This document shows positions 5,921 to 52,920 of a stretch of 64,000 nt of DNA, piece after piece. The DNA is taken from positions 7,177-71,176 of the forward strand of contig JBDRET010000024.1 in the NCBI GenBank assembly GCA_043819495.1, read 5' to 3'. The first letter of the stretch is position 1, and every line of letters begins with the position of its first letter. The stretch is from Candidatus Woesearchaeota archaeon (GTDB lineage: Archaea > Nanobdellota > Nanobdellia > Woesearchaeales > UBA11576). The position numbers and the translations under genes were made by a program. Under the pieces are notes generated by a model. The model searched no databases and was not told where the DNA came from. It was given only the letters and a program-made list of their open reading frames with translations.

Positions 5921-8251
5921 ATGATGTTCCATGCCAACAAACCCCTATATTCCTATGAGGTAGTGCGTGAGGGAGAGGATAATGTCCTTCGTGTAAATTA
6001 CGAAGGTGCTCCTGTGGTCCCTTCTATGGAGAACAATCCTATTGTCATGTCAAGGGTCTGTGATAACCTTATCGAATCAAAGAATGCGACCAAGATAATA
6101 TTCACCCAGAAACGGGAATATGAGTATGATTATAATCAGACACTCCTGATCAAGGAGATTGCAGAGGTGTACGACAAGCTGTCCAAGCAGAAGGACATGT
6201 TCACCCTGACTGCACTTCAGGTGGATGAATCATCCAAGAGATTCGCCAATAGATGGTATACTGAGGTACAGACACTCATCTTCCAGACATTGAGGGCTGA
6301 CCCGATAGGGATGTATGTTGACCTCAAGAGAAAAGCGAGAGAAGAGAAGGTCAACTTCATCAAGATTGTCGACGAGAAGATAAAGCCCGGCATAAGCAAT
6401 TACATCAAGCTGCTGACATATGTCATAAATGTCATGGAGAAGACACGTCTGATTACCGTCGCAAAACCTTTCCTTTCCGGTTACCATATAGGTGACAGGG
6501 AGATCTACAGTAATTTCTTCCATCCCATGATAAAGCCTGACTTCATGTGGACAAAGCTCATGGCGAATTATCCTCCTGATGGGGAAGAGATGGACAGTTA
6601 CGTAATAGGTGATGATACAGAGATAGTGATATTCAGGTTGCAGGATTCTGTACAGTACATATATCACATGACCCCTCCAGAATTCAAGCTATCAGAGGAT
6701 AAATATGAACTTCTTGACATGGCACGTAACATCCTTGCCGAGCACAAGCCGAGCAAGCAGGAATTCACTGATCCTGAAAGGATGAGAGAGGTCTTCACCA
6801 ATGTAGGCAAGGATCTCATGGCTGAGCTTGTCGCATACAAGAATATGGAGATGTCACAGAGTGAGATAGAGAAGCTTGCCAATATTCTCGTCAGGTATAC
6901 CGTAGGTTTCGGTCTGGTCGAGGTCCTGCTTCAGGATGATAAGATCCAGGACATATCAGTGAACAGCCCGCAAGGCAGGCTCCCTATATTTGTCGTCCAT
7001 GCGGATGCTGCTGATTGTGTCACTAATGTCATCCCGACGAAGACAGAGGCAGAGAGCTGGGCAACAAAACTAAGGATGATATCAGGCAGACCTCTTGATG
7101 AGGCAAATGTAATCCTTGATACTGAACTTGAGATGCCGGGAGCATCCATAAGGGTGTCTACGATAACCCAGCCGCTCAACCCATCAGGACTCGCATTCTC
7201 GTTCAGAAGGCATAGGGACAAGCCATGGACGCTGCCGCTTTTCATGAAATACAAGATGATCAGCCCTCTTGCAGCAGGACTTCTCAGTTTTCTTGTGGAT
7301 GGTACAAGGAGCATGATGGTGTGCGGTACCAGGTCAAGCGGAAAGTCTGCTTTCTTATCTTCCCTTCTCATAGAGATCATGCGTAGATACAGGATAATAA
7401 CTGTAGAGGATACTCTGGAGCTTCCTACAACATCAATGCGTCGACTGGGATTCAACGTGCAGCCGATGAAGGTAGCGAGCGCACTTGCAAAAGGGAGCAG
7501 TGAGATGAGTGCAGAAGACGGCATAAGGAGCACGTTAAGGTTGGGTGACAGCGCGTTGATAGTCGGTGAAGTAAGGAGCAGTGAAGCCAAAGCACTATAC
7601 GAAGCTATGCGAGTAGGTGCTGCAGCTAACGTCGTTGCAGGAACTATCCATGCTGACAGCCCTTTTGGTCTTTTTGATAGGGTAGTCAATGACATAGGCA
7701 TCCCGAAGACCAGCTTTAAGGCGACTGATATAGTGATAATCGCGACCCCTATAAAATCCGCAGATGGCCTTCACAGGGTCAGGAGGGTGACACAGATAAC
7801 TGAGATCCGAAAGAGCTGGCAGGAAGATCCGATGCTCGAACACGGATTTGTCGACCTGATGAAATATGATGCAAAGACAGACAGTCTTGAGCCGACCGAT
7901 GAATTGCTCGACGGTGATGCAGAGGTCCTCAAGGCAATCGCCGCAAACATACCTGACTTCGCAGGCAATTGGGATGCTGTATGGGATAATATAGTCCTGC
8001 GAGGGGAACTCAAAGAGATATTGTTGAATAAAGCGATAGAACTTGATGATATGGACATGCTAGAAGCACCATTTGTCATAAAATCCAATGATAAGTTCCA
8101 TCTGCTTGTAGAAGAGGTCAAGAAAGACACAGGGACACAGGATAACAAAGAGCTGAAGCGACGATGGGAGAACTGGTTTGACCGTGAACTGAAGAAAAGA
8201 AAACTTAATAAAGGCAAAACCGACTTCAATCCGTATGGATTGAGCTATTGA
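5921..8251 (+). CDS. Type II/IV secretion-system ATPase of the FlaI/GspE/TadA family, unusually long (776 aa) with N- and C-terminal extensions
   Basis: Walker A 'CGTRSSGKSAF' (a variant of GxTGSGKT), Asp-box/Walker B 'IITVEDTLEL', and a 'VGEVRSSEA' His-box-like region. The domain order matches the FlaI N-domain followed by the ATPase domain. Confidence 0.75.
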   Translation: MMFHANKPLYSYEVVREGEDNVLRVNYEGAPVVPSMENNPIVMSRVCDNLIESKNATKIIFTQKREYEYDYNQTLLIKEIAEVYDKLSKQKDMFTLTALQVDESSKRFANRWYTEVQTLIFQTLRADPIGMYVDLKRKAREEKVNFIKIVDEKIKPGISNYIKLLTYVINVMEKTRLITVAKPFLSGYHIGDREIYSNFFHPMIKPDFMWTKLMANYPPDGEEMDSYVIGDDTEIVIFRLQDSVQYIYHMTPPEFKLSEDKYELLDMARNILAEHKPSKQEFTDPERMREVFTNVGKDLMAELVAYKNMEMSQSEIEKLANILVRYTVGFGLVEVLLQDDKIQDISVNSPQGRLPIFVVHADAADCVTNVIPTKTEAESWATKLRMISGRPLDEANVILDTELEMPGASIRVSTITQPLNPSGLAFSFRRHRDKPWTLPLFMKYKMISPLAAGLLSFLVDGTRSMMVCGTRSSGKSAFLSSLLIEIMRRYRIITVEDTLELPTTSMRRLGFNVQPMKVASALAKGSSEMSAEDGIRSTLRLGDSALIVGEVRSSEAKALYEAMRVGAAANVVAGTIHADSPFGLFDRVVNDIGIPKTSFKATDIVIIATPIKSADGLHRVRRVTQITEIRKSWQEDPMLEHGFVDLMKYDAKTDSLEPTDELLDGDAEVLKAIAANIPDFAGNWDAVWDNIVLRGELKEILLNKAIELDDMDMLEAPFVIKSNDKFHLLVEEVKKDTGTQDNKELKRRWENWFDRELKKRKLNKGKTDFNPYGLSY

Positions 8252-8263
8252 TCTTCCGATCCA

Positions 8264-8671
8264 TTGTTGATAAAAAGAGGCATCAATATGGCAGTACCGA
8301 CAGCACAGGCACCACAGAATTATTATTCCAAATCACCTCCAGGTGCAAGACCTGGACCTTCTTACGCCAAACAGATGCCTGTAAGTCCTGGCGCTGCACG
8401 TAGCCCTTCTCAGAACACTGGAACTGCAACTCCTCAGCAGAGTGTCAAGAAAGAGTTTGATATAAATCTCTATTTCAAGGCAGTAGGATTGTTCTTCAAT
8501 GATTTCTTCGGAAAGAAAATGCCTTACTTCTTCCAGAATATGGGGCCTGTGATGCAGAATGCGCCTAACTGGTGGAACAAGCTCCCTCAGGATGAACAGA
8601 TATCATATGGTGTTATGGTATTTGGAGGATTCCTTTTTGTTGCAGGGATAGTGCTTTTTGTAGTGCTGTGA
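8264..8671 (+). CDS. Small Pro/Gln-rich protein with a C-terminal TM anchor (start probably the Met at ~8288)
   Basis: Low-complexity N-terminus, then 'VMVFGGFLFVAGIVLFVVL' as the terminal helix. Confidence 0.4.
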   Translation: MLIKRGINMAVPTAQAPQNYYSKSPPGARPGPSYAKQMPVSPGAARSPSQNTGTATPQQSVKKEFDINLYFKAVGLFFNDFFGKKMPYFFQNMGPVMQNAPNWWNKLPQDEQISYGVMVFGGFLFVAGIVLFVVL

Positions 8672-8674
8672 TGA

Positions 8675-10309
8675 TCACTGCCGTACCATTCCCTTTACAT
8701 TATATACTTGAATAGGATTAGATTTTCCTTTCACTCTTATCGGTTCAAGCTCTTCACACTTGACGAGCTTCTTGACTTCTGCATGCGTGGTCGCGGTAAT
8801 GAGGATCTCATCTGCTTTTGCAGCTCCGCAAAGACGTGCGGCGACATTGACGCTGTTTCCTATGACTGTGTAATCCATGCGCTGCCTTGCGCCGACATTA
8901 CCTACGATCATCTCACCAGTATTGATGCCTATTCCGATATTTATGTCGATGCCATACTTCTTCTTGAACTTCTTGGATAATATCTTCTGTGCTGCCTGCA
9001 TCTCGACGGCAGTCTTCACTGCCTTGAGCGCATGCGCTTCGGTGCGGACTGGAGCGCCGAATATCGCCATTATCTCGTCACCTACAAACTTGTCTAGTGT
9101 CCCGTTGTTCTGGTGTATTATCTGCAACATCGTCTCGAAGTGCTCGTTGAGTATCTCTATTGTGTGTTCTGGTGCGAGCTGCTCTGACCATGCTGTGAAG
9201 TCACGCAGGTCTGAGAACAGTACGCTCATCTCACGTTTCTCTGTCCTGAGATAATTCTCTTCAGGGTTTGCAAGTATCTGCTTCATTACTTCAGGACTGA
9301 CGTAGCTCTGGAAGGCAGTCTTTATCTCGGTCTTTGCAAGATCCTCAAATACTGCTGAGTCTGCCTGCTTTGCGATAGCATTGAGAAGATTCTTGTCTAT
9401 CTTCGTGAACCCGTCAGATGAGCTTGAGTTTATCACTCCGAAGACACCCATAGTATCATCATTGAGCATGAATGGTGTACAGATAGCTGAGTCTATATCC
9501 TTGTTGACATTCTTGAACTCTGTAAGCTCTCCCTTGTTCAGTGTCGTACGTGCAGTATCATATAATGCATTTGAATTGTTATGGACAAATGTGGATGACT
9601 TGAGCTTGCCTGCGGTCTTGAGCTCCGTGGTGTTCATCTTCCTATTATTTATCATGAAGAATGCGAGCTTTGCATCTATGACATCAGTTATCTCCTGCAA
9701 TATCGCTTCCATCATCGTGTCAAAGTCTTTTATCGTGTCTCTGATCCGGTCTATGGCGTATATCGTCGAGAGCTCTTTGTCCTTCTCACTCAGTTCCCTG
9801 CGGCTCTTTGCGTGCTCGACAGCTACAGCAGTAAATTTACATATCATCCTGAAAAGTATGAGGTCCTTCTTCTTGAACAGTCTGCGGCTCTTGTTCATTA
9901 TCATGAAGACGCCGATCGGTTCTGATCCGTACATCAATGGCAATGCCATCACATTCTGTATCCTGCATCGTCTCATGCGCTTGTGCATACGGGTGTCATT
10001 CACTATTATCTGCTTCCCTGTCTTGACCAGGTTGTCACATATATCCCTGACCAATGCCTGATCCTCAAGCTGTTCGGAAGTGTTGGTCGCACCATACTCG
10101 AATGGGTTCATGTTGTCTTTGTTGTATAAGATTATGAATCCCAATTCTACTCCAATTGTCTTGACTGTCAGAAGAAGTATCTCCTTAAGGAGCTGGTAGA
10201 ATTCCTTTGTATTGGTCTCTATGGTCACCAATTCGCTCAATATGTATGAACGGGTATTCTGGGACCTGATCTTAGCTGCCAGTCTTTTGATCTTATCAGA
10301 GGATTTCAT
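8675..10309 (-). CDS. Class III adenylate/guanylate cyclase with two N-terminal GAF-like domains
   Basis: Cyclase homology domain motifs are present: 'VLFSDLRDFT', 'KFVGDEIMAIFGAP', 'INTGEMIVGNVG' and 'DYTVIGNSVNVAARL'. The N-terminal ~350 aa looks like tandem GAF sensor domains. Confidence 0.7.
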   Translation of the reverse strand: MKSSDKIKRLAAKIRSQNTRSYILSELVTIETNTKEFYQLLKEILLLTVKTIGVELGFIILYNKDNMNPFEYGATNTSEQLEDQALVRDICDNLVKTGKQIIVNDTRMHKRMRRCRIQNVMALPLMYGSEPIGVFMIMNKSRRLFKKKDLILFRMICKFTAVAVEHAKSRRELSEKDKELSTIYAIDRIRDTIKDFDTMMEAILQEITDVIDAKLAFFMINNRKMNTTELKTAGKLKSSTFVHNNSNALYDTARTTLNKGELTEFKNVNKDIDSAICTPFMLNDDTMGVFGVINSSSSDGFTKIDKNLLNAIAKQADSAVFEDLAKTEIKTAFQSYVSPEVMKQILANPEENYLRTEKREMSVLFSDLRDFTAWSEQLAPEHTIEILNEHFETMLQIIHQNNGTLDKFVGDEIMAIFGAPVRTEAHALKAVKTAVEMQAAQKILSKKFKKKYGIDINIGIGINTGEMIVGNVGARQRMDYTVIGNSVNVAARLCGAAKADEILITATTHAEVKKLVKCEELEPIRVKGKSNPIQVYNVKGMVRQ

Positions 10310-10699
10310 ATTATGGGTAATTTGTTATTCCACGCAAGTAGTAAACTTGTATAAGTTATATTTAAATGTTTTGTTTATTGGTTTTTTCCGGTGATCTGCC
10401 GGCCATTTTTTGCACGTGTTTAAACTGCTTTATTCTGTATTATTAGAGCTTCTATGGTTTTTTTATTGTGCTCTGTTTTACTATACTGCTTATTTTATTG
10501 TTGTTTTTAGTCTTTTATATTTATGTGCGAACAGAAAGATTTAAATATTGGTTTGTAGAGCTATTTAATATAGGCAGAAACAGTAACGGCTTTGGTTTAA
10601 TGACTTTCAGAGGATTCCGTTTGTTAAACGGTCTCCCTTTGCTATCGAATCGGGTTATTTCACCTTTAGCCGTACTGTGGTTTTATCTGCAAGCAAGAG

Positions 10700-11386
10700 G
10701 TGTTTGAAATGCCAGCCCCCACAAACAATGTTTTCAATAGTGTTGCAGCACAGTATCTGCAGAAAGACAGCGCATTCTATTCTAATGTGTCAAAAGCACA
10801 TGATATCTTATGTAAGGTCAGGAATCAGTCAGATGGACACGGCATAACATTTGTAGTGAGACGTAATGAGTATATGCCAAGTCTTGACCGTCGCCTCAGG
10901 AACGCAAAGCAGTATAACGAAGAATCACACCTGCTTGATGATCAGGATATAGTCGAAGTAGTTGCAGACCACCGTGAGGTCGACCTTGCGACCATAGTCA
11001 ATAATGAGGGTCAGATAACCGCTGCGAGCGTATACCTGCCTGCGGATGATCTCATGTATCAGGATAAGTATGGGATCCAATGCGACATCTCAACCTTCCT
11101 CGGTTATGCTCCGGATGAGGATGGTGCAGGTGGACGGGCGATAAGCTCTCTCTGTGCGTCAGATATGTTCAATGGTGACGTCGCCATATTGACACTTGGC
11201 GAGACATCGCCTACTGGGAAGAAAGGTGAGATAAACCTGTATTTCCAAGGTGATAGGCTGTATAACAGTAAAGGGAGAGCTGTACGTTGGGACCTTGCAG
11301 ATCCTTTGAGGTTACCTAAGACGCGGAGACAGTTGTACAGTATTCCTTACTTGAGTGAGAGCACCATTGCGCTCACTCCGTTTTAG
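10700..11386 (+). CDS. Hypothetical protein with a divergent DisA_N/DAC-like (diadenylate cyclase) domain
   Basis: Aligns by eye to the CdaA DAC core. 'IVNNEGQITAASVYLPADD' matches 'IIQGxxIAAAASYLPLSD', and 'GGRAISSLCASDMFNGDVAILTLGETSPTG' matches '[29 protein letters not shown]'. The catalytic DGA and RHR motifs are replaced by DLA and GGRA. Confidence 0.35.
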   Translation: MFEMPAPTNNVFNSVAAQYLQKDSAFYSNVSKAHDILCKVRNQSDGHGITFVVRRNEYMPSLDRRLRNAKQYNEESHLLDDQDIVEVVADHREVDLATIVNNEGQITAASVYLPADDLMYQDKYGIQCDISTFLGYAPDEDGAGGRAISSLCASDMFNGDVAILTLGETSPTGKKGEINLYFQGDRLYNSKGRAVRWDLADPLRLPKTRRQLYSIPYLSESTIALTPF

Positions 11387-11462
11387 GCATCGTCACTTTA
11401 TGCTGAACTGCATCAGCTTTTTCTTCTATTTTTTTTCAGCTCGCTAGGCAGTGGTGCTCTCA
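11356..11462 (+). repeat. Hairpin element family 1, copy A (107 nt)
   Basis: Terminal inverted repeat tgagagcacca / tggtgctctca, with internal 'ttgcgctcac ... aactgca ... cagctcgctaggcag'. It overlaps the last codons of the 10700-11386 ORF. Confidence 0.6.
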
Positions 11463-11535
11463 TTTATACAGTAATTCGGGTAGGTGTGTGGATCAGAACA
11501 TAATCTTTATAAGAAAACACTTCATCTTTGGGGTT

Positions 11536-12774
11536 ATGAGCATGAAGAAAGAGCTTGAGGCAGTCGTTGAGCAGATACGGCCTTCCGATAAGAAACTCCT
11601 TAAAGAAGTCAATGATTTCATCAAGAAGCTCAATGCAGAACTCAAGGTAAAAGGCATACGCGCAAAGACAGTCATGGGTGGGTCTATAGCTAAAGATACC
11701 TACCTGAAAGGTGACCATGATTGCGACCTATTTGTCAGGTTCCATAAGAGCTATGCTGACAAAGACATATCAAAACTTCTTGGAGCAGTACTAAAACCAT
11801 TCAGACCTGTCAAAGTACACGGAAGCAGAGATTATTATCATATAAAGAACGGTATCAATTATGAGATTGTCCCGGTACTCGAGATAACTGATGCAAAAGA
11901 TGCAGTGAATGTCACTGACATGAGCCCTATGCATGTCACCTGGGTGAAAGACCATCCTGGGTTGACTGATGAGATACGTCTCGCAAAACAGTTCTGCAAA
12001 GCAAGCGGAGTATATGGTGCAGAATCTTACATCAAAGGATTTTCCGGTCATGTTCTTGATATATTGGTCATACAGTACGGCGGTTTTGTCAATTTCCTGA
12101 AGGCAACTCAGAAATGGAAAGACAAGGAAGTGATAGACCCTGAGAAGCATTACAAAAAAGATGCGCTCCAAAAGCTAAACAGGTCAAAGATAGACAGTCC
12201 AATAATAGTCATAGATCCAGTATGTCCTGAAAGGAATGCTGCTGCTGCATTATCCGGAGAGAAACTAGATATGCTCAAAGCTGCTGCTGCAAAGTTCCTC
12301 AAGGAACCATCAAAGGATCTATTCGTCGTGCGTGAGAAGAGCACTGTTGACATAAAGACCGGCGCAGGCAAGAACAAGACAATAATGCTTGAGGTCACTG
12401 CGTTCCGCGGAAAAGAGGATGTTGTCGGTGCGAAATTGCTCAAGGCATTCCAGCAGATCCACAACCAGCTCAGGTTCTATGATTTTGAGGTCATCGATGC
12501 AGGATGGAAATGGAACAAGAAGGAGAAAGCGCTCTTCTGGTATGTGCTTGACCCAAAAGACCTGATCCAGATAAAGAAATGGATCGGACCTCCTCTGCGC
12601 GAGACAGAACGGATAAAGAATTTTGAGAGCAAGCACGGAAATACATTCGTCGAGGATGGCAGGGTATGCACTTACGTTAAGCGTAAGTATGTGAATGCAG
12701 AAGCGCTGATAGATGATATAATCAAGGATGATGAGCATCTATATGAAAAGGTGAAGAGGGTGGTCCGTAAATGA
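11536..12774 (+). CDS. cca: Archaeal CCA-adding enzyme (class I tRNA nucleotidyltransferase)
   Basis: 'GGSIAKDTYLKGDHDCDLFVRF' is the class-I polymerase-beta-like motif. Length ~412 aa. The track's start at 11488 is trimmed to the MSMKK Met. Confidence 0.85.
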   Translation: MSMKKELEAVVEQIRPSDKKLLKEVNDFIKKLNAELKVKGIRAKTVMGGSIAKDTYLKGDHDCDLFVRFHKSYADKDISKLLGAVLKPFRPVKVHGSRDYYHIKNGINYEIVPVLEITDAKDAVNVTDMSPMHVTWVKDHPGLTDEIRLAKQFCKASGVYGAESYIKGFSGHVLDILVIQYGGFVNFLKATQKWKDKEVIDPEKHYKKDALQKLNRSKIDSPIIVIDPVCPERNAAAALSGEKLDMLKAAAAKFLKEPSKDLFVVREKSTVDIKTGAGKNKTIMLEVTAFRGKEDVVGAKLLKAFQQIHNQLRFYDFEVIDAGWKWNKKEKALFWYVLDPKDLIQIKKWIGPPLRETERIKNFESKHGNTFVEDGRVCTYVKRKYVNAEALIDDIIKDDEHLYEKVKRVVRK

Positions 12775-17010: not shown

Positions 17011-17118
17011 AGGGTATCCTATGCCCGGAGTATTTATAAACTTTATTCATTTCTTTTTCGGATACCCACAGTACTTATGCCCATATCTTTAGTACAATCA
17101 TCTGCGGAGCGGATAAAT

Positions 17119-17715
17119 ATGAAACTACTTGCATTCGTTGACCTGCATGGTTCTTTGAGCATGATAAAGAAGATCGCATCCACTGTGAAAAAAGAGGATG
17201 TGGATTGCATCATCTGCGCAGGAGATGTGACCATATTCGGAGATTCTATGAAGCAACTTGTGCGAAAGCTCGATGGAATAGGTCCAACAGTATTCATGCT
17301 GCATGGAAACCATGAAGACCGTATCTCTCTGAAGCGTGCCTGTGAAAATACAAAGAATGTCAAGTTCATGCATAAGGCAGTCTTTGAGACTGATGAATAT
17401 GTTATCATGGCTTATGGGGGAGGGGGCTTTTCCACAAAGGATGCAGAGTTTGAGAAATGGACAAAAGAGGCTATGAAAACAATCGGCAAGGACAAGAAGA
17501 TAATCCTTGTCACGCATGCTCCTCCTTATGGAACAAAGTTAGATCTCATACTTGACCAGCCTGCAGGTAATAAGTCGATACGTGCGTTCATAGAGAAAGA
17601 GAAGCCGGTATTGGCCATAAGCGGGCATCTGCATGAGAATTCTTATGTCAAGGATAAGATAGGTAAGACAATCATAGTCAACCCTGGACCTGGTGGGATG
17701 GTTTTTGAGGTATGA
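17119..17715 (+). CDS. Calcineurin-like metallophosphoesterase
   Basis: 'LAFVDLHGS', 'CAGDVTIFG', 'LHGNHED', 'THAPPYG' and 'ISGHLHE' are the canonical MPE motifs. The start is trimmed to MKLLAF. Confidence 0.7.
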   Translation: MKLLAFVDLHGSLSMIKKIASTVKKEDVDCIICAGDVTIFGDSMKQLVRKLDGIGPTVFMLHGNHEDRISLKRACENTKNVKFMHKAVFETDEYVIMAYGGGGFSTKDAEFEKWTKEAMKTIGKDKKIILVTHAPPYGTKLDLILDQPAGNKSIRAFIEKEKPVLAISGHLHENSYVKDKIGKTIIVNPGPGGMVFEV

Positions 17716-24034: not shown

Positions 24035-25801
24035 GTGCGATACAAGGGGTGTGACAGTTTGACAGAAGATATAGTGAACGATATTCTAGATTCAGAGGGA
24101 AATCTCAAACCGGGATTCAGTGGTATAGGTAAGCTAAGAGGCAAGACAGATTATACAAAAGATGAGGAGACAGTACTAAAGCATTTCTTCACCAATACGC
24201 ACTCAAATGTGTACTGCGCTACAGATAACATGCCAGGAGAGCTATGGGCATTGATAATGGGCCAGTATGCACGGAGCAGCATGACCGGAAGAGATAGGCT
24301 GCTCAAGCTGTTCACTGACATGGAAGAGAAAGGTGAAGCGATATCAGTATCCGAGCTAGCAGAGATGATACGATCTGGACGCGATGTCGCAGGAGCACTT
24401 CAAGCATACCTCAATAAAGCAGGGAATTTCATCGAGATATATGGTGTGAAGTACGGCCATGCATCACTACGAGATTCAGGTGTAATCAGAATATGTTTCG
24501 AAGGGGTGAGCCAGAGAGCCACCAAGTTCCTTGAGAGCGCCAGAGAGGGGGCATATCAGGAACAGTCTACCCGTGCCATCCCTTATGAGATGGAGAATCT
24601 TGGCGTCCCATATGAGATCCGTGACACCAAGTATGAGATCATCATACATGAGCTGGATGAGAAGCTCATCGAACTATACAATAAGATATACAATAAGCTG
24701 ATAGTATACCTGCCTAGTAAGTTTGCTCATCTCAGGGCCAAGGCCGATGAGAAGCTGGCTTCTGAGCTTGGCCGTGATGACGTGACGATAACTGACAGGG
24801 AGTGGAGCAGTATCATAGCTGCAAAGGCATTCGATGTCGCGAGATACCTGCTGCCTCAGAACATGACAACATCTTTAGGCATCACATTGAACACCCGAAG
24901 GTTCCAGGACAAGCTCACTGAATGGCAGTCCTCAGACATCATGGAGATGCAGGTGCTTGGAAAGGTGGCTCAGGTCGAGTCCATGAAGATAAGCCCTACG
25001 CTCATGAAGTACGGCAACAAGAGCCCGTATCATGTGAAGATACCTTCTGCACTTAAGGCGCTCAATAAGAAATTTGTAGTCAACAACAAGGCCTGTGCAG
25101 CTTTCCCTTACACACATTATGATGTCAGCTCAAAGATGATATCTGCCCCTGACGACCTGCAGGAACTGGTCCTTGCAAGCATACTGCTCAATGGTTCAGA
25201 TGGCAGTGTGAGCATGGATGAATTCAAGCAGATTGTAGGGAACATGTCATTTGATGAGAAACGTGAGGTCGCTGAGAGCGTAGCGTCAGATAAACCGTCT
25301 CATGACATATTCTCCAAGACGATGGAATGCGGATCAGTCATCTTTGAGAGAGTCTATGATATAGGTGCATTCAGGGACCTTCAGAGACAGAGAGGGGATA
25401 GGCAGCAATTCAACAGATATTCAGTCATAGGTTACAACATGCCTAAAGAGGTCGCAGAGATCGGTTTAAAGGCTGAGTTTGTCACTCTTATGAATGAAGT
25501 CAAGAATGTATATGATATGATGTGTGAAGAGGGTATCGCTGCGGCAGAGTATGTGCCTGTGATGGCAAATGTCCTGCGACACGTCGTCACAAAAGATCCT
25601 GTCCAGTGTTTCTATGAGGCGAAACTTAGAGCGCAGCCTGCAGGCATCGATTCTTACAGATCAATAGCTCAGCAGGAGATAACCCAACTTCTTGATGTGA
25701 TGCCTGTCTTCAAAGGTCTGGTACCCTACGATGCAGAATATTATAATCTTGGCAGGCTCGAAGAGACAGTCAATGGCAAGCTGAGGAAGCATAAGAAATA
25801 A
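24035..25801 (+). CDS. ThyX-like (flavin-dependent thymidylate synthase family) protein, tandem duplication of the ThyX domain with non-canonical RHR motifs
   Basis: First domain: 'GHASLRDSGVIRICFEG...FLESAREGAYQEQSTRA' aligns to ThyX 'GHETPFEHIVFTFHV...WFRHRIASYNELSGRY', and 'ARYLLPQNMTTSLGITLNTRRFQDKL' matches ThyX 'ARxvLPxNxxTxxxxTxNxRxLxxFL'. Second domain: 'AFRDLQRQRGDRQQFNRYS' and 'YVPVMANVLRHVVTKDPVQCFYEAKLR'. Confidence 0.45.
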   Translation: MRYKGCDSLTEDIVNDILDSEGNLKPGFSGIGKLRGKTDYTKDEETVLKHFFTNTHSNVYCATDNMPGELWALIMGQYARSSMTGRDRLLKLFTDMEEKGEAISVSELAEMIRSGRDVAGALQAYLNKAGNFIEIYGVKYGHASLRDSGVIRICFEGVSQRATKFLESAREGAYQEQSTRAIPYEMENLGVPYEIRDTKYEIIIHELDEKLIELYNKIYNKLIVYLPSKFAHLRAKADEKLASELGRDDVTITDREWSSIIAAKAFDVARYLLPQNMTTSLGITLNTRRFQDKLTEWQSSDIMEMQVLGKVAQVESMKISPTLMKYGNKSPYHVKIPSALKALNKKFVVNNKACAAFPYTHYDVSSKMISAPDDLQELVLASILLNGSDGSVSMDEFKQIVGNMSFDEKREVAESVASDKPSHDIFSKTMECGSVIFERVYDIGAFRDLQRQRGDRQQFNRYSVIGYNMPKEVAEIGLKAEFVTLMNEVKNVYDMMCEEGIAAAEYVPVMANVLRHVVTKDPVQCFYEAKLRAQPAGIDSYRSIAQQEITQLLDVMPVFKGLVPYDAEYYNLGRLEETVNGKLRKHKK

Positions 25802-34396: not shown

Positions 34397-35182
34397 ATGA
34401 CCTGCATGAGATTCTGTCCAAAATGCGGTAAGAACGGCATACAAGGAGATTTCTGCAGTGAATGCGCTGAAAAAGAGCTTGACCTAACATTCAATGAGGT
34501 AGTCATCAAGAAATGCATCAGCTGTGCTAGATTCATGCTCCGTAATAGCTGGAAAGAGTTCAGGAACCTTGATGAAGGCATAATACGTGCAGCACATATC
34601 AAGATAAAGAACCCAAAGAATGCCGTGCTTGATATAACGCCAGATTACAAGGAATTGAAGAACAAACCAGGCGCAAAGCAGGAAATAAACCTTGAGATAG
34701 TTGCAGAGGGTCAGGATTTCGTCATACCTGCCACTATAGAGTTCACTTATTGCGACAAATGCGCAAAAGCAGGAACTCAGTATTTTGAAGGGGTGCTCCA
34801 GTTACGAGACGCAACTCCTGAACTGCTTGCTTTTGTCGAGAAAGATATAGCTGCTAATGTGAATGAAGGTGCGCATGTAACAACAAAGACCGGAAAAGGT
34901 GGTAATATCGATTTCATCATGACCTCTACAAAGTACATGCTTGCATTGGGGAAGAGGCTAAATCAGAAATTCAATGGTGAGCTCACTGTCACAGCAAAGC
35001 TATTTTCGCGGAACAGGCAGACAAGCAAGGAAGTATTTAGGACCAGTATACTGTTCAGGATGAGGACGTATAAGATCGGTGAGATAATCGAGACTCGAGG
35101 GAAAAAAATCAAGATAACAACCATAGGAAAGAAAGTGTCAGGCATAGATACAGAGACAGGGAAGAAAGTGTTTGTGGATTGA
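34397..35182 (+). CDS. NMD3-family (60S export adapter-like) zinc-binding protein
   Basis: N-terminal CxxC pairs 'CPKCG', 'CSEC', 'CISC', 'CDKC'. Basic C-terminus. Confidence 0.35.
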   Translation: MTCMRFCPKCGKNGIQGDFCSECAEKELDLTFNEVVIKKCISCARFMLRNSWKEFRNLDEGIIRAAHIKIKNPKNAVLDITPDYKELKNKPGAKQEINLEIVAEGQDFVIPATIEFTYCDKCAKAGTQYFEGVLQLRDATPELLAFVEKDIAANVNEGAHVTTKTGKGGNIDFIMTSTKYMLALGKRLNQKFNGELTVTAKLFSRNRQTSKEVFRTSILFRMRTYKIGEIIETRGKKIKITTIGKKVSGIDTETGKKVFVD

Positions 35183-35741
35183 TAATGTGAATGAGGAAAT
35201 CGAGATAAAGGTGGCATTGAAGAATCCTGAAGAGGTTCTCAATAAGTTAAGCCATTCAGCTAAGTTTGTGAAAGATAAGAGACAGAAAGATGAATACTTT
35301 GTACCTAAGCATAATGACTTCTTCGCTGTCAAGAATACAGTTGAATATCTGCGTATACGATCTCAAGATGGAAAGGCTGAGATAGGATACCACTTCTGCC
35401 ATCTGGCGCCTGATGGAAGTCTCCTGAAAACGGACGAGTACGAGACCAAAGTAGATGACCCCCAGATGATGTCAACAATACTCAAGAAATTAGATATGAT
35501 ACTCAAGGTGACAGTTACTAAGGACAGGAAATACTTTGACTATAAAGATTTCGAAGTGCTTGTGGATAATGTAGAGAATCTAGGGTATTTTCTTGAGGTA
35601 GAGGCCAAGAATGTTGTGGGTGATATAGGCGCAGTCAAAAAAAGTTGTTATGTTGTCCTGGATGAGTTGGGTGTAAAATGGGAGAAATTACCTGATATGG
35701 GTTATCCTGACCTGCTTCTTGAGAAGATGAGTGAGAATTAA
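35172..35741 (+). CDS. CYTH-domain protein (CyaB/thiamine-triphosphatase-like triphosphate tunnel enzyme)
   Basis: N-terminal 'EIEIKVAL', and 'YLRIR' and 'EYETKV' acidic tunnel motifs. ~190 aa. Confidence 0.55.
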   Translation: MWIDNVNEEIEIKVALKNPEEVLNKLSHSAKFVKDKRQKDEYFVPKHNDFFAVKNTVEYLRIRSQDGKAEIGYHFCHLAPDGSLLKTDEYETKVDDPQMMSTILKKLDMILKVTVTKDRKYFDYKDFEVLVDNVENLGYFLEVEAKNVVGDIGAVKKSCYVVLDELGVKWEKLPDMGYPDLLLEKMSEN

Positions 35742-48254: not shown

Positions 48255-51200
48255 ATGGTACTTGAGAAACTTGGAACTTCACTCAGAGACACACTCCACA
48301 AGATAAGTAAAGCAGTCTTTGTAGATGAAAAACTGGTCAATGAGCTGGTCAAGGATATCCAGCGGGCCCTTCTCCAGTCAGATGTCAATGTCAAGATGGT
48401 ATTTGAGCTCTCCAAGAAGATAAAGGAGAGGCTGATGAATGATGATGCACCTCCAGGCCTGACAAAGAAAGAATTCCTCATAAAGATAGTGTATGAAGAG
48501 CTTGTGAACTTCCTTGGGGCTGAAGCATCAACTATAGAGATAACGAAGAAACCAACTAAGATCATGATGGTAGGACTTTTTGGTCATGGAAAATGTGTAC
48601 ATAAGGACAGCAACATACTTCTTTTTGACGGTACAACTGTCGGGGTGCAGCAACTATACGACTCCTACAGGTGCAATGGGGAGGTCGACATAGAGGATGG
48701 ATGTATCATACCTCTTGATGCAGAGCTTTCTGTCCCTTCGATGAACACAAAAAGCCTGAAGATCGAGAAAAAGAGAGTGACTCATCTCTGGAAACTGAAA
48801 TCAAAAGACCTGATGGCTGTATCGCTCGATATGGGAAATGACTTCAACGTCAAGACCACCTGTGAGCACCCGTTCTTTGTACTGAAAGATGGCTTGGTGG
48901 AGCAAAGAAGGGCAGATGAATTAAGGAGAGGGGATTATGTAGCAATACCTGCGAAGGTCACTACAGAATCTGGCAGCATCAACTTTGAGGACTCTCTGAA
49001 GAGACTCAACCTCAACGTGAAGATATCTGATGATAAGACCTTAAGAACACTCAAGAAAAAGATAATAGCAGAACATGGAACACTGATGCGCGCAGCTTAC
49101 TCACTCCCCCATAAACGTAATTATGCTGTATTTACGAGTTCCTTAAAGAAAGGAGAGATCCCAATCCAGCTATGTGGCCTCGGAACATCTGATGCTGTGC
49201 ACTTAAAGCTGCAGAACTCCCAAGATTATATCGATTTTCCCACAAGATCAACACCTGAAATGGCAGAATTCTTGGGCTACATCATAGGCGATGGTCATCT
49301 TTCCCATAATAGTGTCAACATATCAAATAAGGACCCTGAAATAATCGAGAGACTGAAAACATTGTCGAAAGACCTCTTCGGCAGGGAGCTGAAGCTTACC
49401 CCCTGCAAAAGGTCCAAAGGATTGTATGATCTCAGGATAAACTCTAAGACCCTTGTCACGCTCATACATGGGCTGTTCGGCATACCGATAGGAAAGAAAG
49501 GGACTGGACTGGAAGTCCCTCAACTCGTACAACTGTCTTCGCAAGATGTAATCTCCAGATTCCTGAGGGCTTATTTCGATTGCGATGGGTATTTCTGCCG
49601 TACCCAAAGGCAGATTGAAGCAGTATCTGAAAGCAGAGTGCTGCTAAGACAGATACAGCATATGCTGCTAAGGTTCGGGATTGTCGCGAAGATGATCAAT
49701 AAGAGAACCGATGGGAAGGACTATTCCAGGCTAATGGTGCAGGCGAGGGATACTGTCATATTCGGTGAGAGGATAGGCGCATCAATCGCAAGGAAAAGGG
49801 AAGCGCTTGAGAACCATGTTATCATGACCATCAAGCAAGGTGATGGAAAGAAAGACATGATACCGGTCGGCAGCCTCCTGAGAGAATTAAGGGAAATGTC
49901 CGGTTTCTCTTTAAGCCAGATACAGGATGCTGTAAGTTCATATGGCCTGTACGAGAAGAAAGGCATGATATCCAGGACACAATTACGCAATGTCGTCTGT
50001 TTCTATGAGCGTGGCGAGAGCGGCAATTTCCGTAAGTTGATAGGCCTGGTGGAGAACTCGCAAAAAGACAAGCTCAGCGAACAGCTACGGATAAGCCAAC
50101 CATTGGTAAACGCGCTTGTGGGAGAGCTGAGGAACAGAAACATGATCGCAGAAGTCACGAACTCACCTACCAGACTTGTCCTTACAGAAAAAGGGAGTAA
50201 GTATTTTGATGGCATGAAACGATCCTCGGACAGACTGTTCGGGATCCTGAGAACCCTTGCGTATGCTGATGTCTGCTGGGCCAAAGTCAAAGACGTCTCT
50301 AAAGTCAAGAATGACCATCCATATGTGTATGATCTCACTGTCGAGGACAGCCATAACTTCATCGCTGATGGCATTGTGGTGCATAATACGACGACTGCCG
50401 CTAAGTTAGCTAAATACTACCAGAAACGTGGCAATAAATTGGCATTGATATCCACAGATACCTGGAGGCCGGCAGCATTTGAGCAATTGAGACAGTTAGG
50501 TGCGCAGATAAACGTCCCGGTATTCGGAAATCCTAAAGCAAAGAGTCCTGTAGCGATATACAAAGAATTCGAAGACAAGCTTGGCGAGTTTGATCTTGTC
50601 ATCATAGATACTGCAGGAAGGGATGCATTGTCTGATGAGCTCATCAGGGAACTGAATGATATCAATAATGCTGTGCAGGCAGATGAGAAACTTCTTGTCA
50701 TAGGCGGTGATGTCGGGCAGGCTGCGGAAAGGCAGGCACAGACATTCCACGATACCTGTAATGTGACTGGTGTGATAATAACAAAGCTTGAAGGTACAGC
50801 AAAAGGTGGCGGTGCACTGATAGCATGCTCCGTGACCGGCGCAAAAGTAAAGTTCATAGGAGTAGGAGAGAAGATTGATGACCTTGAAGTGTACTCTCCT
50901 GAAAGGTTCGTCGGAAAGATGCTTGGCATGGGCGATCTTGAAGGCCTCCTTGAGAAAGCACGTGAAGCGATAACAGAAGAAGATGCACAGGACCTCGGTA
51001 AGAAACTCCTGAAAGGTGATTTTAACCTCCTTGACCTTTATGAGCAGATGCAGGCGATGAAGAAGATGGGGCCTTTGGGCAAGGTGATGGACATGATACC
51101 TGGCTTTGGTCAGATCAAGCTGCCAAAGGATGCATTGAAAGTCCAAGAAGAGAAGATCAAGAAATGGAAATTCATACTCGACAGCTGCACCAAAGAGGAG

Positions 51201-51437
51201 CTGGAAGACCCTGACAGCAACATGAGCGCACAGCGCATCGACAGGATATCAAAAGGCTCAGGTGTCGGGCCTGGAGAGATACGCGAACTGCTTAAACAGT
51301 ACAAACAGAGCAAGAAGATGATGAAGTCACTGAAAGGACTGGGTGGAGGATCACCTGCGCAGATGGAAAAGATGATGAAGCGCATGGGTGGCGGGATGCC
51401 TGGGATGAAAGATGGAAAGAACATGATGTTCAAGTAA
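48255..51437 (+). CDS. srp54: Signal recognition particle protein SRP54 interrupted by an intein (extein ~462 aa)
   Basis: N domain, then P-loop 'GLFGHGK' + [intein] + 'TTTAAKLA', then 'DTAGR', 'TKLEGTAKGG' and the M domain 'GMGDLEGLLEK...MKKMGPLGKVMDMIPG'. Confidence 0.85.
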   Translation: MVLEKLGTSLRDTLHKISKAVFVDEKLVNELVKDIQRALLQSDVNVKMVFELSKKIKERLMNDDAPPGLTKKEFLIKIVYEELVNFLGAEASTIEITKKPTKIMMVGLFGHGKCVHKDSNILLFDGTTVGVQQLYDSYRCNGEVDIEDGCIIPLDAELSVPSMNTKSLKIEKKRVTHLWKLKSKDLMAVSLDMGNDFNVKTTCEHPFFVLKDGLVEQRRADELRRGDYVAIPAKVTTESGSINFEDSLKRLNLNVKISDDKTLRTLKKKIIAEHGTLMRAAYSLPHKRNYAVFTSSLKKGEIPIQLCGLGTSDAVHLKLQNSQDYIDFPTRSTPEMAEFLGYIIGDGHLSHNSVNISNKDPEIIERLKTLSKDLFGRELKLTPCKRSKGLYDLRINSKTLVTLIHGLFGIPIGKKGTGLEVPQLVQLSSQDVISRFLRAYFDCDGYFCRTQRQIEAVSESRVLLRQIQHMLLRFGIVAKMINKRTDGKDYSRLMVQARDTVIFGERIGASIARKREALENHVIMTIKQGDGKKDMIPVGSLLRELREMSGFSLSQIQDAVSSYGLYEKKGMISRTQLRNVVCFYERGESGNFRKLIGLVENSQKDKLSEQLRISQPLVNALVGELRNRNMIAEVTNSPTRLVLTEKGSKYFDGMKRSSDRLFGILRTLAYADVCWAKVKDVSKVKNDHPYVYDLTVEDSHNFIADGIVVHNTTTAAKLAKYYQKRGNKLALISTDTWRPAAFEQLRQLGAQINVPVFGNPKAKSPVAIYKEFEDKLGEFDLVIIDTAGRDALSDELIRELNDINNAVQADEKLLVIGGDVGQAAERQAQTFHDTCNVTGVIITKLEGTAKGGGALIACSVTGAKVKFIGVGEKIDDLEVYSPERFVGKMLGMGDLEGLLEKAREAITEEDAQDLGKKLLKGDFNLLDLYEQMQAMKKMGPLGKVMDMIPGFGQIKLPKDALKVQEEKIKKWKFILDSCTKEELEDPDSNMSAQRIDRISKGSGVGPGEIRELLKQYKQSKKMMKSLKGLGGGSPAQMEKMMKRMGGGMPGMKDGKNMMFK
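48594..50387 (+). mobile_element. Intein (~598 aa) with a LAGLIDADG homing-endonuclease domain, inserted in the SRP54 P-loop
   Basis: Begins Cys ('K|CVHKDSNILLFDG'), ends 'VVHN|T'. Block B 'THLW'. LAGLIDADG motifs 'LGYIIGDGHL' and 'YFDCDGYF'. Confidence 0.8.
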
Positions 51438-52053: not shown

Positions 52054-52920
52054 ATGACTATCGCTTACATAAGGACTATGGCTGATGACTCTGGTACTTT
52101 AGCAGTCTTTCAAGGGAAACGCATACGAAAGACTTGGCAAGTTGACGAATGGTGGTTCGTGATAGAGGATATTATCGTTGCGTTGACTGATTCTCATGAC
52201 CCTAAACAGTATATCCAGAAGATGAAACAGAGGGATGAAGAGTTGGCTAAAGGGTGGGTACAGATTGTACGTACCCTTTCAATAAAAACCTCTGGGGGCT
52301 CTCAGAACATGAATTGTACCAATACTGAAGGCGCTTTCAGGATAATACAATCTATACCGTCCCAAAAAGCAGAGCCGTTCAAGCTTTGGCTTGCAAAGGT
52401 AGGTCATGAACGTGTACAGGAGATAGAAAATCCGGAAATCGCACAGAAACGCATGAAAGAGCTTTATAGGCAGAAAGGCTATTCTGACGATTGGATTGAG
52501 AAAAGAGTGCGTGGAATCGCCATAAGGGATGAGCTCACTGACCAATGGAGTACAAGAGGAGTCAAAGAAGAAAAGGAATACGCGATACTCACTGCGCAGA
52601 TATCGAAGGCAACATTCGGGATGACCCCGTCAGAGTATCAAAAGTTCAAAGGTCTGAAACGGCAAAACTTAAGGGATCACATGAACGATCTCGAACTCAT
52701 ATTCTCCATGCTTGGCGAAAGGGCGACAACAGAGATAGCAGTCACTAAGGATGCACAAGGATTCCTTCAAAATGAACAGGCAGCAAAGAAAGGTGGGACT
52801 ATCGCAGGTGATGCTCGAGAGAAACTAGAGGTTGAGACCGGAAAAAGAGTATCTACGCCTCTGAATTATCGTGATGAACCCGAAAACGTGAAGAAAATTG
52901 AAGCAAAGAAAAAAAGATGA
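52054..52920 (+). CDS. DinD-like (DNA-damage-inducible protein D family) with a Bro-N/KilA-N-like N-domain
   Basis: N-terminal 'FQGKRIRKTWQVDEWWFVIEDIIVAL' (Bro-N-like). The C-terminal 'KGLKRQNLRDHMNDLELIFSMLGERATTE' is recalled as similar to E. coli DinD 'KGLKKNQKILDHMGSTELAANLFRATQTE'. Confidence 0.45.
   Translation: MTIAYIRTMADDSGTLAVFQGKRIRKTWQVDEWWFVIEDIIVALTDSHDPKQYIQKMKQRDEELAKGWVQIVRTLSIKTSGGSQNMNCTNTEGAFRIIQSIPSQKAEPFKLWLAKVGHERVQEIENPEIAQKRMKELYRQKGYSDDWIEKRVRGIAIRDELTDQWSTRGVKEEKEYAILTAQISKATFGMTPSEYQKFKGLKRQNLRDHMNDLELIFSMLGERATTEIAVTKDAQGFLQNEQAAKKGGTIAGDAREKLEVETGKRVSTPLNYRDEPENVKKIEAKKKR

Follow-up and report, generated by a model that had tools for sequence, protein, structure and literature searches.

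Does a small-genome archaeon make two nucleotide second messengers from one locus, or do two genes of nucleotide-signalling folds lie together there by descent? The question is raised by a pair of divergently transcribed genes on contig JBDRET010000024.1 of Candidatus Woesearchaeota archaeon, from which a 64-kb stretch was analysed (the window; 44.0% GC, archaeal chromosome). One gene encodes a class III cyclase with two GAF domains, the other a protein that resembles diadenylate cyclases (DACs). A preliminary description, made from the DNA sequence, took the pair for a second-messenger module. Its two divergent open reading frames (ORFs) are both in the ORF list, at 8675-10309 on the minus strand (544 aa) and from 10700 or 10709 to 11386 on the plus strand, and both proteins are identical to GenBank entries of the metagenome-assembled genome (MAG) Candidatus Woesearchaeota archaeon. 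The host is a DPANN (Woesearchaeota/Nanoarchaeota) archaeon with a symbiotic-type small genome, and the pair lies back to back in its chromosome. We think it probable that an intact GAF-GAF adenylate cyclase stands here beside a DAC descendant that binds nucleotide and is not a canonical synthase of cyclic di-AMP (c-di-AMP).

The cyclase and its catalytic site

The cyclase gene and its domains are placed as follows.

8675..10309, minus strand: gene for a GAF-GAF class III (IIIb-like) adenylate cyclase, 544 aa (ORF list, Pfam, PDB phmmer)
9815..10198, minus strand: GAF domain A, aa 38-165 (Pfam GAF_2, E 5.5e-19)
9353..9730, minus strand: GAF domain B, aa 194-319 (GAF_2 at 31.3 bits, cut-off 28.6, E 2.7e-7, segment scanned alone)
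8702..9238, minus strand: cyclase homology domain, aa 358-536, with D367, K407, D411, T481, N488 and R492 (motif positions and alignment)

As the preliminary description held, this is a genuine class III cyclase with two GAF domains. Pfam Guanylate_cyc (PF00211) matches aa 358-536 at 102.2 bits (gathering score 21.9), GAF_2, GAF and GAF_3 also match, and the metal-binding Asp pair is accompanied by four other catalytic residues. A phmmer search of PDB finds 63 cyclase chains at E<=1e-3, the best of them CyaB of P. aeruginosa (3r5g, E 8e-39) and Cya2 of Synechocystis (2w01, E 2e-34). These class IIIb enzymes (CyaB, 3R5G; Cya2, 2W01 and 6FHT) are the best solved matches to aa 354-541, and they share with the window protein the motifs F-S-D, (L/I)-D-K-F-(V/M)-G-D, D-Y-T-(V/I)-I-G and V-N-(V/L)-A-(A/S)-R-L, with Lys and Thr at the substrate positions. 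In the alignment F-S-D367, L-D-K407-F-V-G-D411, D-Y-T481 and V-N488-V-A-A-R492-L fall on their CyaB and Cya2 counterparts, the metal-binding D367 (F-S-D) and D411 (V-G-D) on the same residues of both enzymes. The six catalytic residues (D367, D411, K407, T481, N488, R492) are invariant across 20 homologues of 36-69% identity.

Substrate choice is read from a pair of positions, where Lys with Asp or Thr indicates ATP, and Glu with Cys or Ser and similar pairs indicate GTP. The pair in the window, K407 and T481, is of the adenine (ATP) type. Its first position is Lys also in the adenylate-converted Cya2 (6fht, IDKFMGD), and Glu in the guanylate cyclase Cya2 (2w01, IDEFMGD). Because all six catalytic residues are intact, the protein is predicted to be an adenylate cyclase. 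By analogy with the solved enzymes it would be a soluble class III (IIIb-like) cyclase that works as a head-to-tail dimer of two catalytic domains; D367 and D411 would hold two Mg or Mn ions, K407 and T481 would select adenine, N488 and R492 would stabilise the transition state, and the 544-aa protein would convert ATP to 3',5'-cyclic AMP (cAMP) and pyrophosphate. The N-terminal tandem GAF domains would control cyclase activity by binding a small ligand.

The window protein departs from CyaB and Cya2 in being archaeal, in its two N-terminal GAF domains and in having no membrane (MASE) or CHASE module. The cyanobacterial cyclases CyaB1 and CyaB2, activated by cAMP, have the order GAF-GAF-PAS-cyclase; they resemble the window protein in their tandem GAF domains N-terminal to a class III adenylate cyclase domain, and differ from it in their PAS domain. 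Among solved structures the GAF domain nearest to those of the 544-aa protein is that of a cGMP phosphodiesterase (5w10), a weak match at E 0.003 (others >0.05), and so slight a similarity to solved GAF domains that bind cyclic nucleoside monophosphates (cNMPs) does not allow the ligand to be inferred.

As a gene, the cyclase is already known and not newly discovered. GenBank names its product 'adenylate/guanylate cyclase domain-containing protein [Candidatus Woesearchaeota archaeon]', IMG also annotates it as a cyclase, and many orthologues are named in the same way or as "class 3 adenylate cyclase". Full-length orthologues (540-544 aa, 52-70% identity) form about 40 clusters from Woesearchaeota/Nanoarchaeota MAGs, and the nearest relatives outside archaea are GAF-cyclases of Anaerolineae at about 40% identity. 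The ratio of nonsynonymous to synonymous substitution rates (dN/dS) is 0.05 between the window and its closest related genome, L007, a value that marks purifying selection. Judged by its sequence, this is a conserved core-gene enzyme and apparently a functional adenylate cyclase. Class III cyclases are indeed uncommon in archaea, as the preliminary description stated; "very few" of the predicted archaeal cyclases belong to that class (PMC8646023). cAMP is present in archaea, where according to a recent review none of the proteins for its synthesis, breakdown or binding has been characterised (PMC10249747).

The same gene bears on the naming of two MAGs, L008 and L009, whose contigs are those of L001 and L004. 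They are titled 'uncultured Methanosarcinales archaeon' and share gene order, and a cyclase at 66-69% identity, with Woesearchaeota/Nanoarchaeota MAGs. Their Methanosarcinales label is probably wrong.

The DAC-like neighbour

The second gene, with its start signal and the counterparts of the DAC active-site motifs, comprises these features.

10709..11386, plus strand: DAC-like gene, 225 aa, with two N-terminal helices, a core of the diadenylate cyclase fold and a family-specific C-terminal motif (AF2 model, Foldseek, hhalign)
10697..10702, plus strand: Shine-Dalgarno-like GAGGTG, 6-7 nt upstream of ATG 10709 (AGGTG kept in 5/7 aligned loci)
10979..10990, plus strand: V91-D92-L93-A94, counterpart of H-D-G-A (DGA), Asp kept and Gly replaced by Leu (hhalign columns)
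11129..11146, plus strand: G141-G142-R143-A144-I145-S146, counterpart of G-T-R-H-R-A (RHR), first Arg kept, His and second Arg lost
11195..11206, plus strand: L163-G164-E165-T166, counterpart of S-E-E-T, second Glu kept (hhalign columns)
11249..11290, plus strand: family motif G-D-R-L-Y-N-S-K-G-R-A-V-R-W, aa 181-194, without counterpart in canonical DACs (family alignments)

The gene had been given a start at GTG 10700. The likely start is instead ATG 10709: the GTG sits within the conserved Shine-Dalgarno-like AGGTG, and the GenBank protein (P0001), identical to the product, has 225 aa. GenBank calls it a "hypothetical protein". The earlier remark that such a locus is not normally annotated thus applies to the DAC-like gene and fails for the cyclase, which both GenBank and IMG annotate.

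Purifying selection also acts on the DAC-like gene (dN/dS 0.106, window against L007), whose product gains amino-acid changes 2-5 times faster than the adjoining cyclase. With ratios of 0.05 and 0.106, neither gene is a chance ORF. For the DAC-like gene a chance ORF or decaying pseudogene was considered and is excluded by a dN/dS of about 0.1 together with family-wide conservation. Among 1.84 billion cluster representatives, searched exhaustively with a profile, there are 27 relatives (themselves cluster representatives), and family searches with alignment profiles yield three loci in GTDB genomes and one in metagenomes, numbers small enough to mark the family as rare.

The relationship to diadenylate cyclases emerges from profile and structure comparison. 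Pfam DAC (PF02457) is the only Pfam match of the ORF and falls below threshold (13.9 bits against 27, E 0.04), an NCBIfam scan of the protein gives no match, and phmmer with a 228-aa version finds no meaningful match among PDB sequences. Two AF2 models were obtained, one from 7 sequences with a predicted local distance difference test score (pLDDT) of 82, the other from 33 sequences with a pLDDT of 92 and a predicted template-modelling score (pTM) of 0.87. For each of them the top 50 Foldseek matches in PDB are all DAC domains (CdaA, DacA, CdaM, CdaS, DisA) at E ~1e-5 and probability 1.0, with template-modelling scores of about 0.6-0.65 when normalised to the target. Aligned by hhalign to 24 canonical CdaA-type DAC domains, the family scores 92.6% probability (E 4.6e-7 over 80 columns), and the motifs line up. 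The family profile run against PDB ranks DACs first, weakly (E 0.06). Pfam DAC is matched by 14/33 family members, four of which (P0011, P0027, P0029, P0033) score 27-34.6 bits and so reach the gathering score; P0011 occupies the same genomic position as the window gene. In BFVD the fold search finds no viral relative at E<=1e-3. By these profile and model comparisons the DAC-like protein is a true remote homologue of diadenylate cyclases, and the DisA_N/DAC-like fold first proposed for it has held up, given the uniform Foldseek list, the hhalign score and the relatives at the Pfam threshold.

CdaA/DacA, DisA, CdaM and CdaS thus have the same fold as the DAC-like protein and are homologous to it by profile comparison. 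The likeness to CdaS (2FB5) extends to two helices that precede the core and to a first strand that begins H-G. Unlike canonical DACs, the window protein is sub-threshold in Pfam, reads DLA for DGA, GGRAIS for GTRHRA and LGET for SEET, and carries the extra motif (family consensus G-D-R-x-Y-N-S-A-G-R-x-x-x-W), a disordered C-terminal tail and an insertion of about 17 residues in the core, ahead of the GxR helix. Past the disordered linker most family members end in a hydrophobic residue followed by Ala-Ala/Gly (RLAA, PLAA, IIAA, YAAA, AAAGPL), often after P-x-x-Y; the window protein ends in STIALTPF (C-terminus at 11330-11386). The short tail looks like a docking motif for some partner.

What remains of the active site is sharply divided between kept and lost positions. 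D92 is kept in 30/33 members, G141 in 33/33, R143 in 32/33, S146 in 31/33 and E165 in 29/33. The Gly column of DGA holds Gly in 17/33 and Leu in 9/33, and the His and second Arg of RHR are found in 5/33 and 7/33. Distant members have D-G-A, G-T-R-H and L-S-E-E; sister clades combine D-G-A with G-x-R-x-R-S-A; the window clade, with Leu for the DGA Gly throughout, combines D-L-A with G-G-R-(A/T)-I-S and is the most derived. Relatives that bear DGA and RxR include P0008 and P0011. According to the literature every DAC studied needs both DGA and RHR (PMC8573169; PMC4568413), and in CdaS a change of either motif to AAA abolishes c-di-AMP synthesis (PMC4568413). The literature searched offers no active DAC with Leu for Gly in DGA. 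The change of DGA to DLA and of RHR to R-A-I makes c-di-AMP synthesis by the DAC-like protein doubtful.

Two known DAC types help to place the protein. The newly described PanS enzymes, whose motifs read DGF and GGR, do synthesise cyclic dinucleotides (bioRxiv 10.64898/2026.08.10.743927). PanS, the minimal DAC of the Panoptoo defence system, is like the window protein divergent and stand-alone, with G-G-R instead of G-T-R-H-R as its second motif. PanS keeps D-G (DGF), has about 150 aa, is bacterial and is encoded in a two-gene operon with an S2TM-beta effector, whereas the window protein has D-L-A and 225 aa, is archaeal, has the cyclase and cca as neighbours with no membrane effector in the operon, and matches no PADLOC model. 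The second type, DacZ/CdaZ (Haloferax volcanii, Methanocaldococcus jannaschii), is likewise an archaeal DAC-domain protein, and among archaeal DAC types activity has been demonstrated for DacZ only (PMC10249747). DacZ is described as having a pyruvate-kinase-C-like domain (PMC10249747), in place of which the window protein has two short N-terminal helices.

Promoters, gene order and surroundings

Between the two genes lies a spacer of 399 bp (10310-10708) with 32.8% GC against 44.0% for the window; by GC content it ranks among the lowest 0.2% of all stretches of that length. Two elements stand out in it.

10359..10366, minus strand: conserved TATA box TTTAAATA (minus strand) with a purine-rich flank resembling a TFB recognition element (BRE), about 50 nt upstream of the cyclase ATG at 10309 (7-genome alignment)
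10540..10547, plus strand: conserved TATA box TTTAAATA, putative promoter element for the DAC-like gene (kept in every aligned locus)

Each box is found once, in the same relative place, in 9/9 loci, and in the 7-genome alignment of the spacer the two boxes are the only conserved islands, the remainder being unalignable. By the archaeal TATA/BRE consensus they would be separate core promoters about 180 bp apart, one for each gene, with transcription predicted to start near 10335 (minus strand) and 10573 (plus strand). The preliminary description had the genes share an AT-rich regulatory region of 390 bp; AT-rich it is, and with two promoters it would not be one shared region. The second promoter would leave a leader of about 135 nt (10570-10708, plus strand) before the DAC-like start codon, long for an archaeal mRNA. 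A riboswitch or other leader RNA was tried there and dropped: Rfam has no match at E<=1 over 8000-12000, and for the predicted 135-nt leaders of six loci RNAalifold arrives at a consensus of -0.67 kcal/mol, so that no structure is conserved. Taken by itself, the window leader is somewhat more stably folded than its shuffled versions (z = -2.3).

The divergent pair is found in nine genomes (that of the window, L007, L001, L004, L006, L013, L016, L017 and L018). Across them identity to the window falls from 79% to about 30% for the DAC-like protein and lies at 66-91% for full-length cyclases; the L018 cyclase is a 117-aa fragment, 62% identical. L018 has three genes between the DAC-like gene and cca, and its DAC-like gene is still beside the cyclase. 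Three further genomes (L010, L011, L012) share the block that runs from the FlaI-like ATPase through MoxR/VWA and lack the DAC-like gene; there cyclase and cca face each other directly. The syntenic block, present in 12/12 genomes, runs through a HerA-like protein, the FlaI-like ATPase, a small membrane protein, the cyclase, cca, an NTP-transferase, MoxR and VWA. Since the whole region is syntenic, the nine pairings are not independent evidence of a functional link. In a neighbour-joining tree of the cyclases, drawn without support values, L010 and L012 form a sister clade and L011 falls inside the pair-bearing clade, a position that points to loss of the DAC-like gene. P0027 and P0020, the two most distant family members examined, lie beside unrelated genes with no cyclase; the 547-aa gene that adjoins P0020 in L015 proved on inspection to encode no cyclase. 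The pairing is old within one clade, lineage-specific and dispensable.

On its other side the cyclase has steadier company. A FlaI/TadA-like ATPase (5921-8251, plus strand) and a protein of about 100-135 aa (8264-8671, plus strand) are its convergent neighbours in 12/12 genomes, a more constant association than that with the DAC-like gene. In the window the small protein has 135 aa and a C-terminal hydrophobic stretch resembling a single transmembrane (TM) helix; the ATPase (FlaI/T2SSE-like) is an intein-free protein of 776 aa, and its orthologue in L013 (1-3140) has 1299 aa and contains an intein. A link from cAMP to a pilus through this neighbour is only an idea.

The preliminary description also counted a CYTH protein among the parts of the module.

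35172-35741, plus strand: CYTH protein (Pfam CYTH 62 bits; TIGR00318 84 bits against a cut-off of 58)

The ORF does exist, and at 84 against 58 bits it passes the cut-off of the NCBIfam equivalog 'class IV adenylate cyclase'. Its sole PDB relatives are SaTTM (Saci_0718, E 2e-12) and PH1819 (E 2e-6), and by these it sides with the archaeal cluster of triphosphate tunnel metalloenzymes (TTM), not with the bacterial CyaB cluster. SaTTM and PH1819 belong to archaeal CYTH cluster 3, which has diverged functionally from class IV adenylate cyclases (AC-IV); SaTTM is a triphosphatase shown to be unable to make cyclic nucleotides, and for it the 'class IV' annotation is wrong (PMC8233210). The NCBIfam model probably over-names archaeal CYTH proteins. 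Resembling a triphosphatase, the CYTH protein adds nothing to a cyclic-nucleotide module.

Other parts of such a module were sought by domain scans of about 47 ORFs, with these 64 kb as the view of the genome. Among these ORFs there is no DHH/DHHA1, 7TMR-HD (PgpH-type HD), RCK_C or PstA-like protein, that is, no phosphodiesterase or receptor for c-di-AMP, and no cNMP-binding protein; a six-frame scan of the window with hidden Markov models reveals no second DAC-like or canonical DAC gene. A calcineurin-like metallophosphoesterase (17077-17715, plus strand), kept in the synteny block of L001 and L010, matches the PADLOC model PDC-S10 (E 3e-15). Class III cNMP phosphodiesterases are members of the same superfamily, and the protein is for that reason a possible cAMP phosphodiesterase.

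The surrounding genes have the housekeeping functions usual in small DPANN genomes: they encode the archaeal CCA-adding enzyme (cca), a sugar-nucleotidyltransferase, the MoxR/VWA pair, a wyosine synthase, threonyl-tRNA synthetase (ThrRS), SRP54 and serine hydroxymethyltransferase (SHMT). The SRP54 gene (48255-51437, plus strand, 1060 aa) carries an intein with a LAGLIDADG homing endonuclease inside its GTPase domain (Pfam Intein_splicing, aa 155-711). The MATCAP family (PF08014) has two paralogous members in this small archaeal genome (38613-39695 and 54115-55275, both minus strand; E 4e-56 and 8e-61). A protein at 52054-52920 (plus strand) has a Bro-N domain, which is typical of viruses and mobile elements, and the 588-aa product of 24035-25801 (plus strand) has as its sole Pfam match a ThyX (Thy1) domain at aa 131-292 and is about twice the usual length of ThyX.

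Readings of the pair

The product of 10700-11386 does not turn out to have an unrelated fold, and the cyclase does not lack its metal-binding Asp pair, the two outcomes that the preliminary description had itself named as fatal. The reading we think probable starts from what the comparisons show, which is the domains present, the catalytic residues, the fold and homology, the state of the motifs, the selection and the distribution of gene order; it would add cAMP as the product of the cyclase, regulation by the GAF domains, nucleotide binding by the DAC-like protein and the assigned roles of the promoters. The 225-aa protein would descend from a diadenylate cyclase, with related clades that still have DGA and R-x-R; the window clade has other residues in place of the DGA Gly, the RHR His and the second RHR Arg, with the catalytic Asp, first Arg, Ser and Glu staying near-invariant. 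At the ancestral site the protein would still bind nucleotide, either as a non-catalytic binding or regulatory protein or as a synthase with altered chemistry. Each gene would be transcribed from its own conserved BRE/TATA promoter, and the DAC-like gene would have held this position in the ancestor of one clade, then been inherited with the synteny and lost once. Several points weigh against this reading. The residue mapping comes from a profile alignment and a predicted, ligand-free model; the activity of PanS with GGR means that loss of Thr and of part of RHR is not decisive alone, so that catalysis is possible; residues as nearly invariant as D92, R143 and E165 would suit a catalytic site no less than a site that only binds; outside the 64 kb there may be a canonical DAC, phosphodiesterases or receptors; and the neighbour-joining tree has no support values.

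If the retained residues do serve catalysis, the DAC-like protein would be an active, divergent diadenylate cyclase in a co-regulated locus making both cAMP and c-di-AMP. We hold this to be unlikely. Fold, homology and purifying selection speak for it, and so do the catalytic Asp, the GxR Arg and one Glu, all near-invariant; the DGA Gly, which is Leu here and kept in 17/33, the His (5/33) and the second Arg (7/33) speak against it, in motifs described as required (PMC8573169; PMC4568413). The PanS precedent, by which neither Thr nor a full RHR is universally needed, reaches only so far, as PanS also keeps D-G. Divergent pairing in nine genomes, maintained in L018 despite a different downstream order, would suit co-regulation, against which stand the two separate promoters, the three related genomes without the gene and a window in which no c-di-AMP phosphodiesterase or receptor domain was found. 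A good deal more credible, though still short of an even chance, is adjacency without functional meaning, in which the DAC-like gene landed once between cyclase and cca, was inherited there and acts in an unrelated process. Synteny of the whole block in 12/12 genomes, which deprives the nine pairings of independence, speaks for it, and the absence of the gene from L010-L012, the unrelated neighbours of the distant members P0027 and P0020 and a rate of protein change 2-5 times that of the cyclase agree with it. It sits less well with L018, where three genes were inserted before cca and the DAC-like gene is still beside the cyclase, and it makes a coincidence of two adjoining proteins of nucleotide-signalling folds. 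Such neighbourhood by descent is compatible with most of the reading we prefer; because the DAC-like gene was inherited with the surrounding synteny, its functional coupling to the cyclase is possible only.

Anti-virus defence of the Pycsar or Panoptoo kind, with the cyclase as a PycC-like signal generator and the DAC-like protein as decoy or signal synthase, is very improbable. The cyclase domain does match PADLOC PycC models (E 9e-30), matches that are generic for the class III fold, and its specificity residues K and T are of the adenine type. DAC domains have recently been shown to act in defence, and the DAC-like gene is patchy and fast-evolving; yet it has no PADLOC match and no viral structural relatives, and the cyclase gene, a core gene with housekeeping genes around it, is highly conserved (66-91% identity, dN/dS 0.05). 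Pycsar has an effector next to its cyclase (a cNMP-binding domain with TM or TIR), and Panoptoo an S2TM-beta protein; no such effector adjoins this locus, where the neighbours are the FlaI-like ATPase, the small membrane protein, the DAC-like protein and cca. As for the second-messenger module first proposed, the intact GAF-GAF adenylate cyclase and the true DAC homologue remain of it, the argument from the CYTH protein fails and the DAC motifs are degenerate; cyclase and DAC-like protein as a signalling module are plausible.

One bolder proposal, to which we give a small chance, is that the DAC-like family is a new archaeal branch of the DAC fold with a remodelled site (Asp, GxR-x-x-S, Glu and the added GDRxYNSAGRxxxW motif), which makes a nucleotide signal other than c-di-AMP or senses cAMP, and forms with the GAF-GAF cyclase a cAMP/dinucleotide cross-talk module peculiar to one DPANN lineage. 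If true, it would give the first defined archaeal cAMP synthase, together with a partner. The organisms are uncultured and functional statements here come from sequence and model comparisons; the cyclase is a known kind of enzyme, already annotated, and the DAC-like family is a small and fast-evolving side branch, so far unannotated, of the diadenylate cyclase superfamily. A class III cyclase with an intact catalytic site, conserved across a DPANN lineage, is nonetheless a concrete candidate for the archaeal cAMP synthase, the widespread "class IV" CYTH candidates having been triphosphatases. Reports of DAC enzymes that depart from the canonical motifs and products are very recent, and in the DAC-like family the classical motifs decay stepwise across clades as the core of Asp, Arg and Glu persists, a natural series on the residues that the DAC fold needs.

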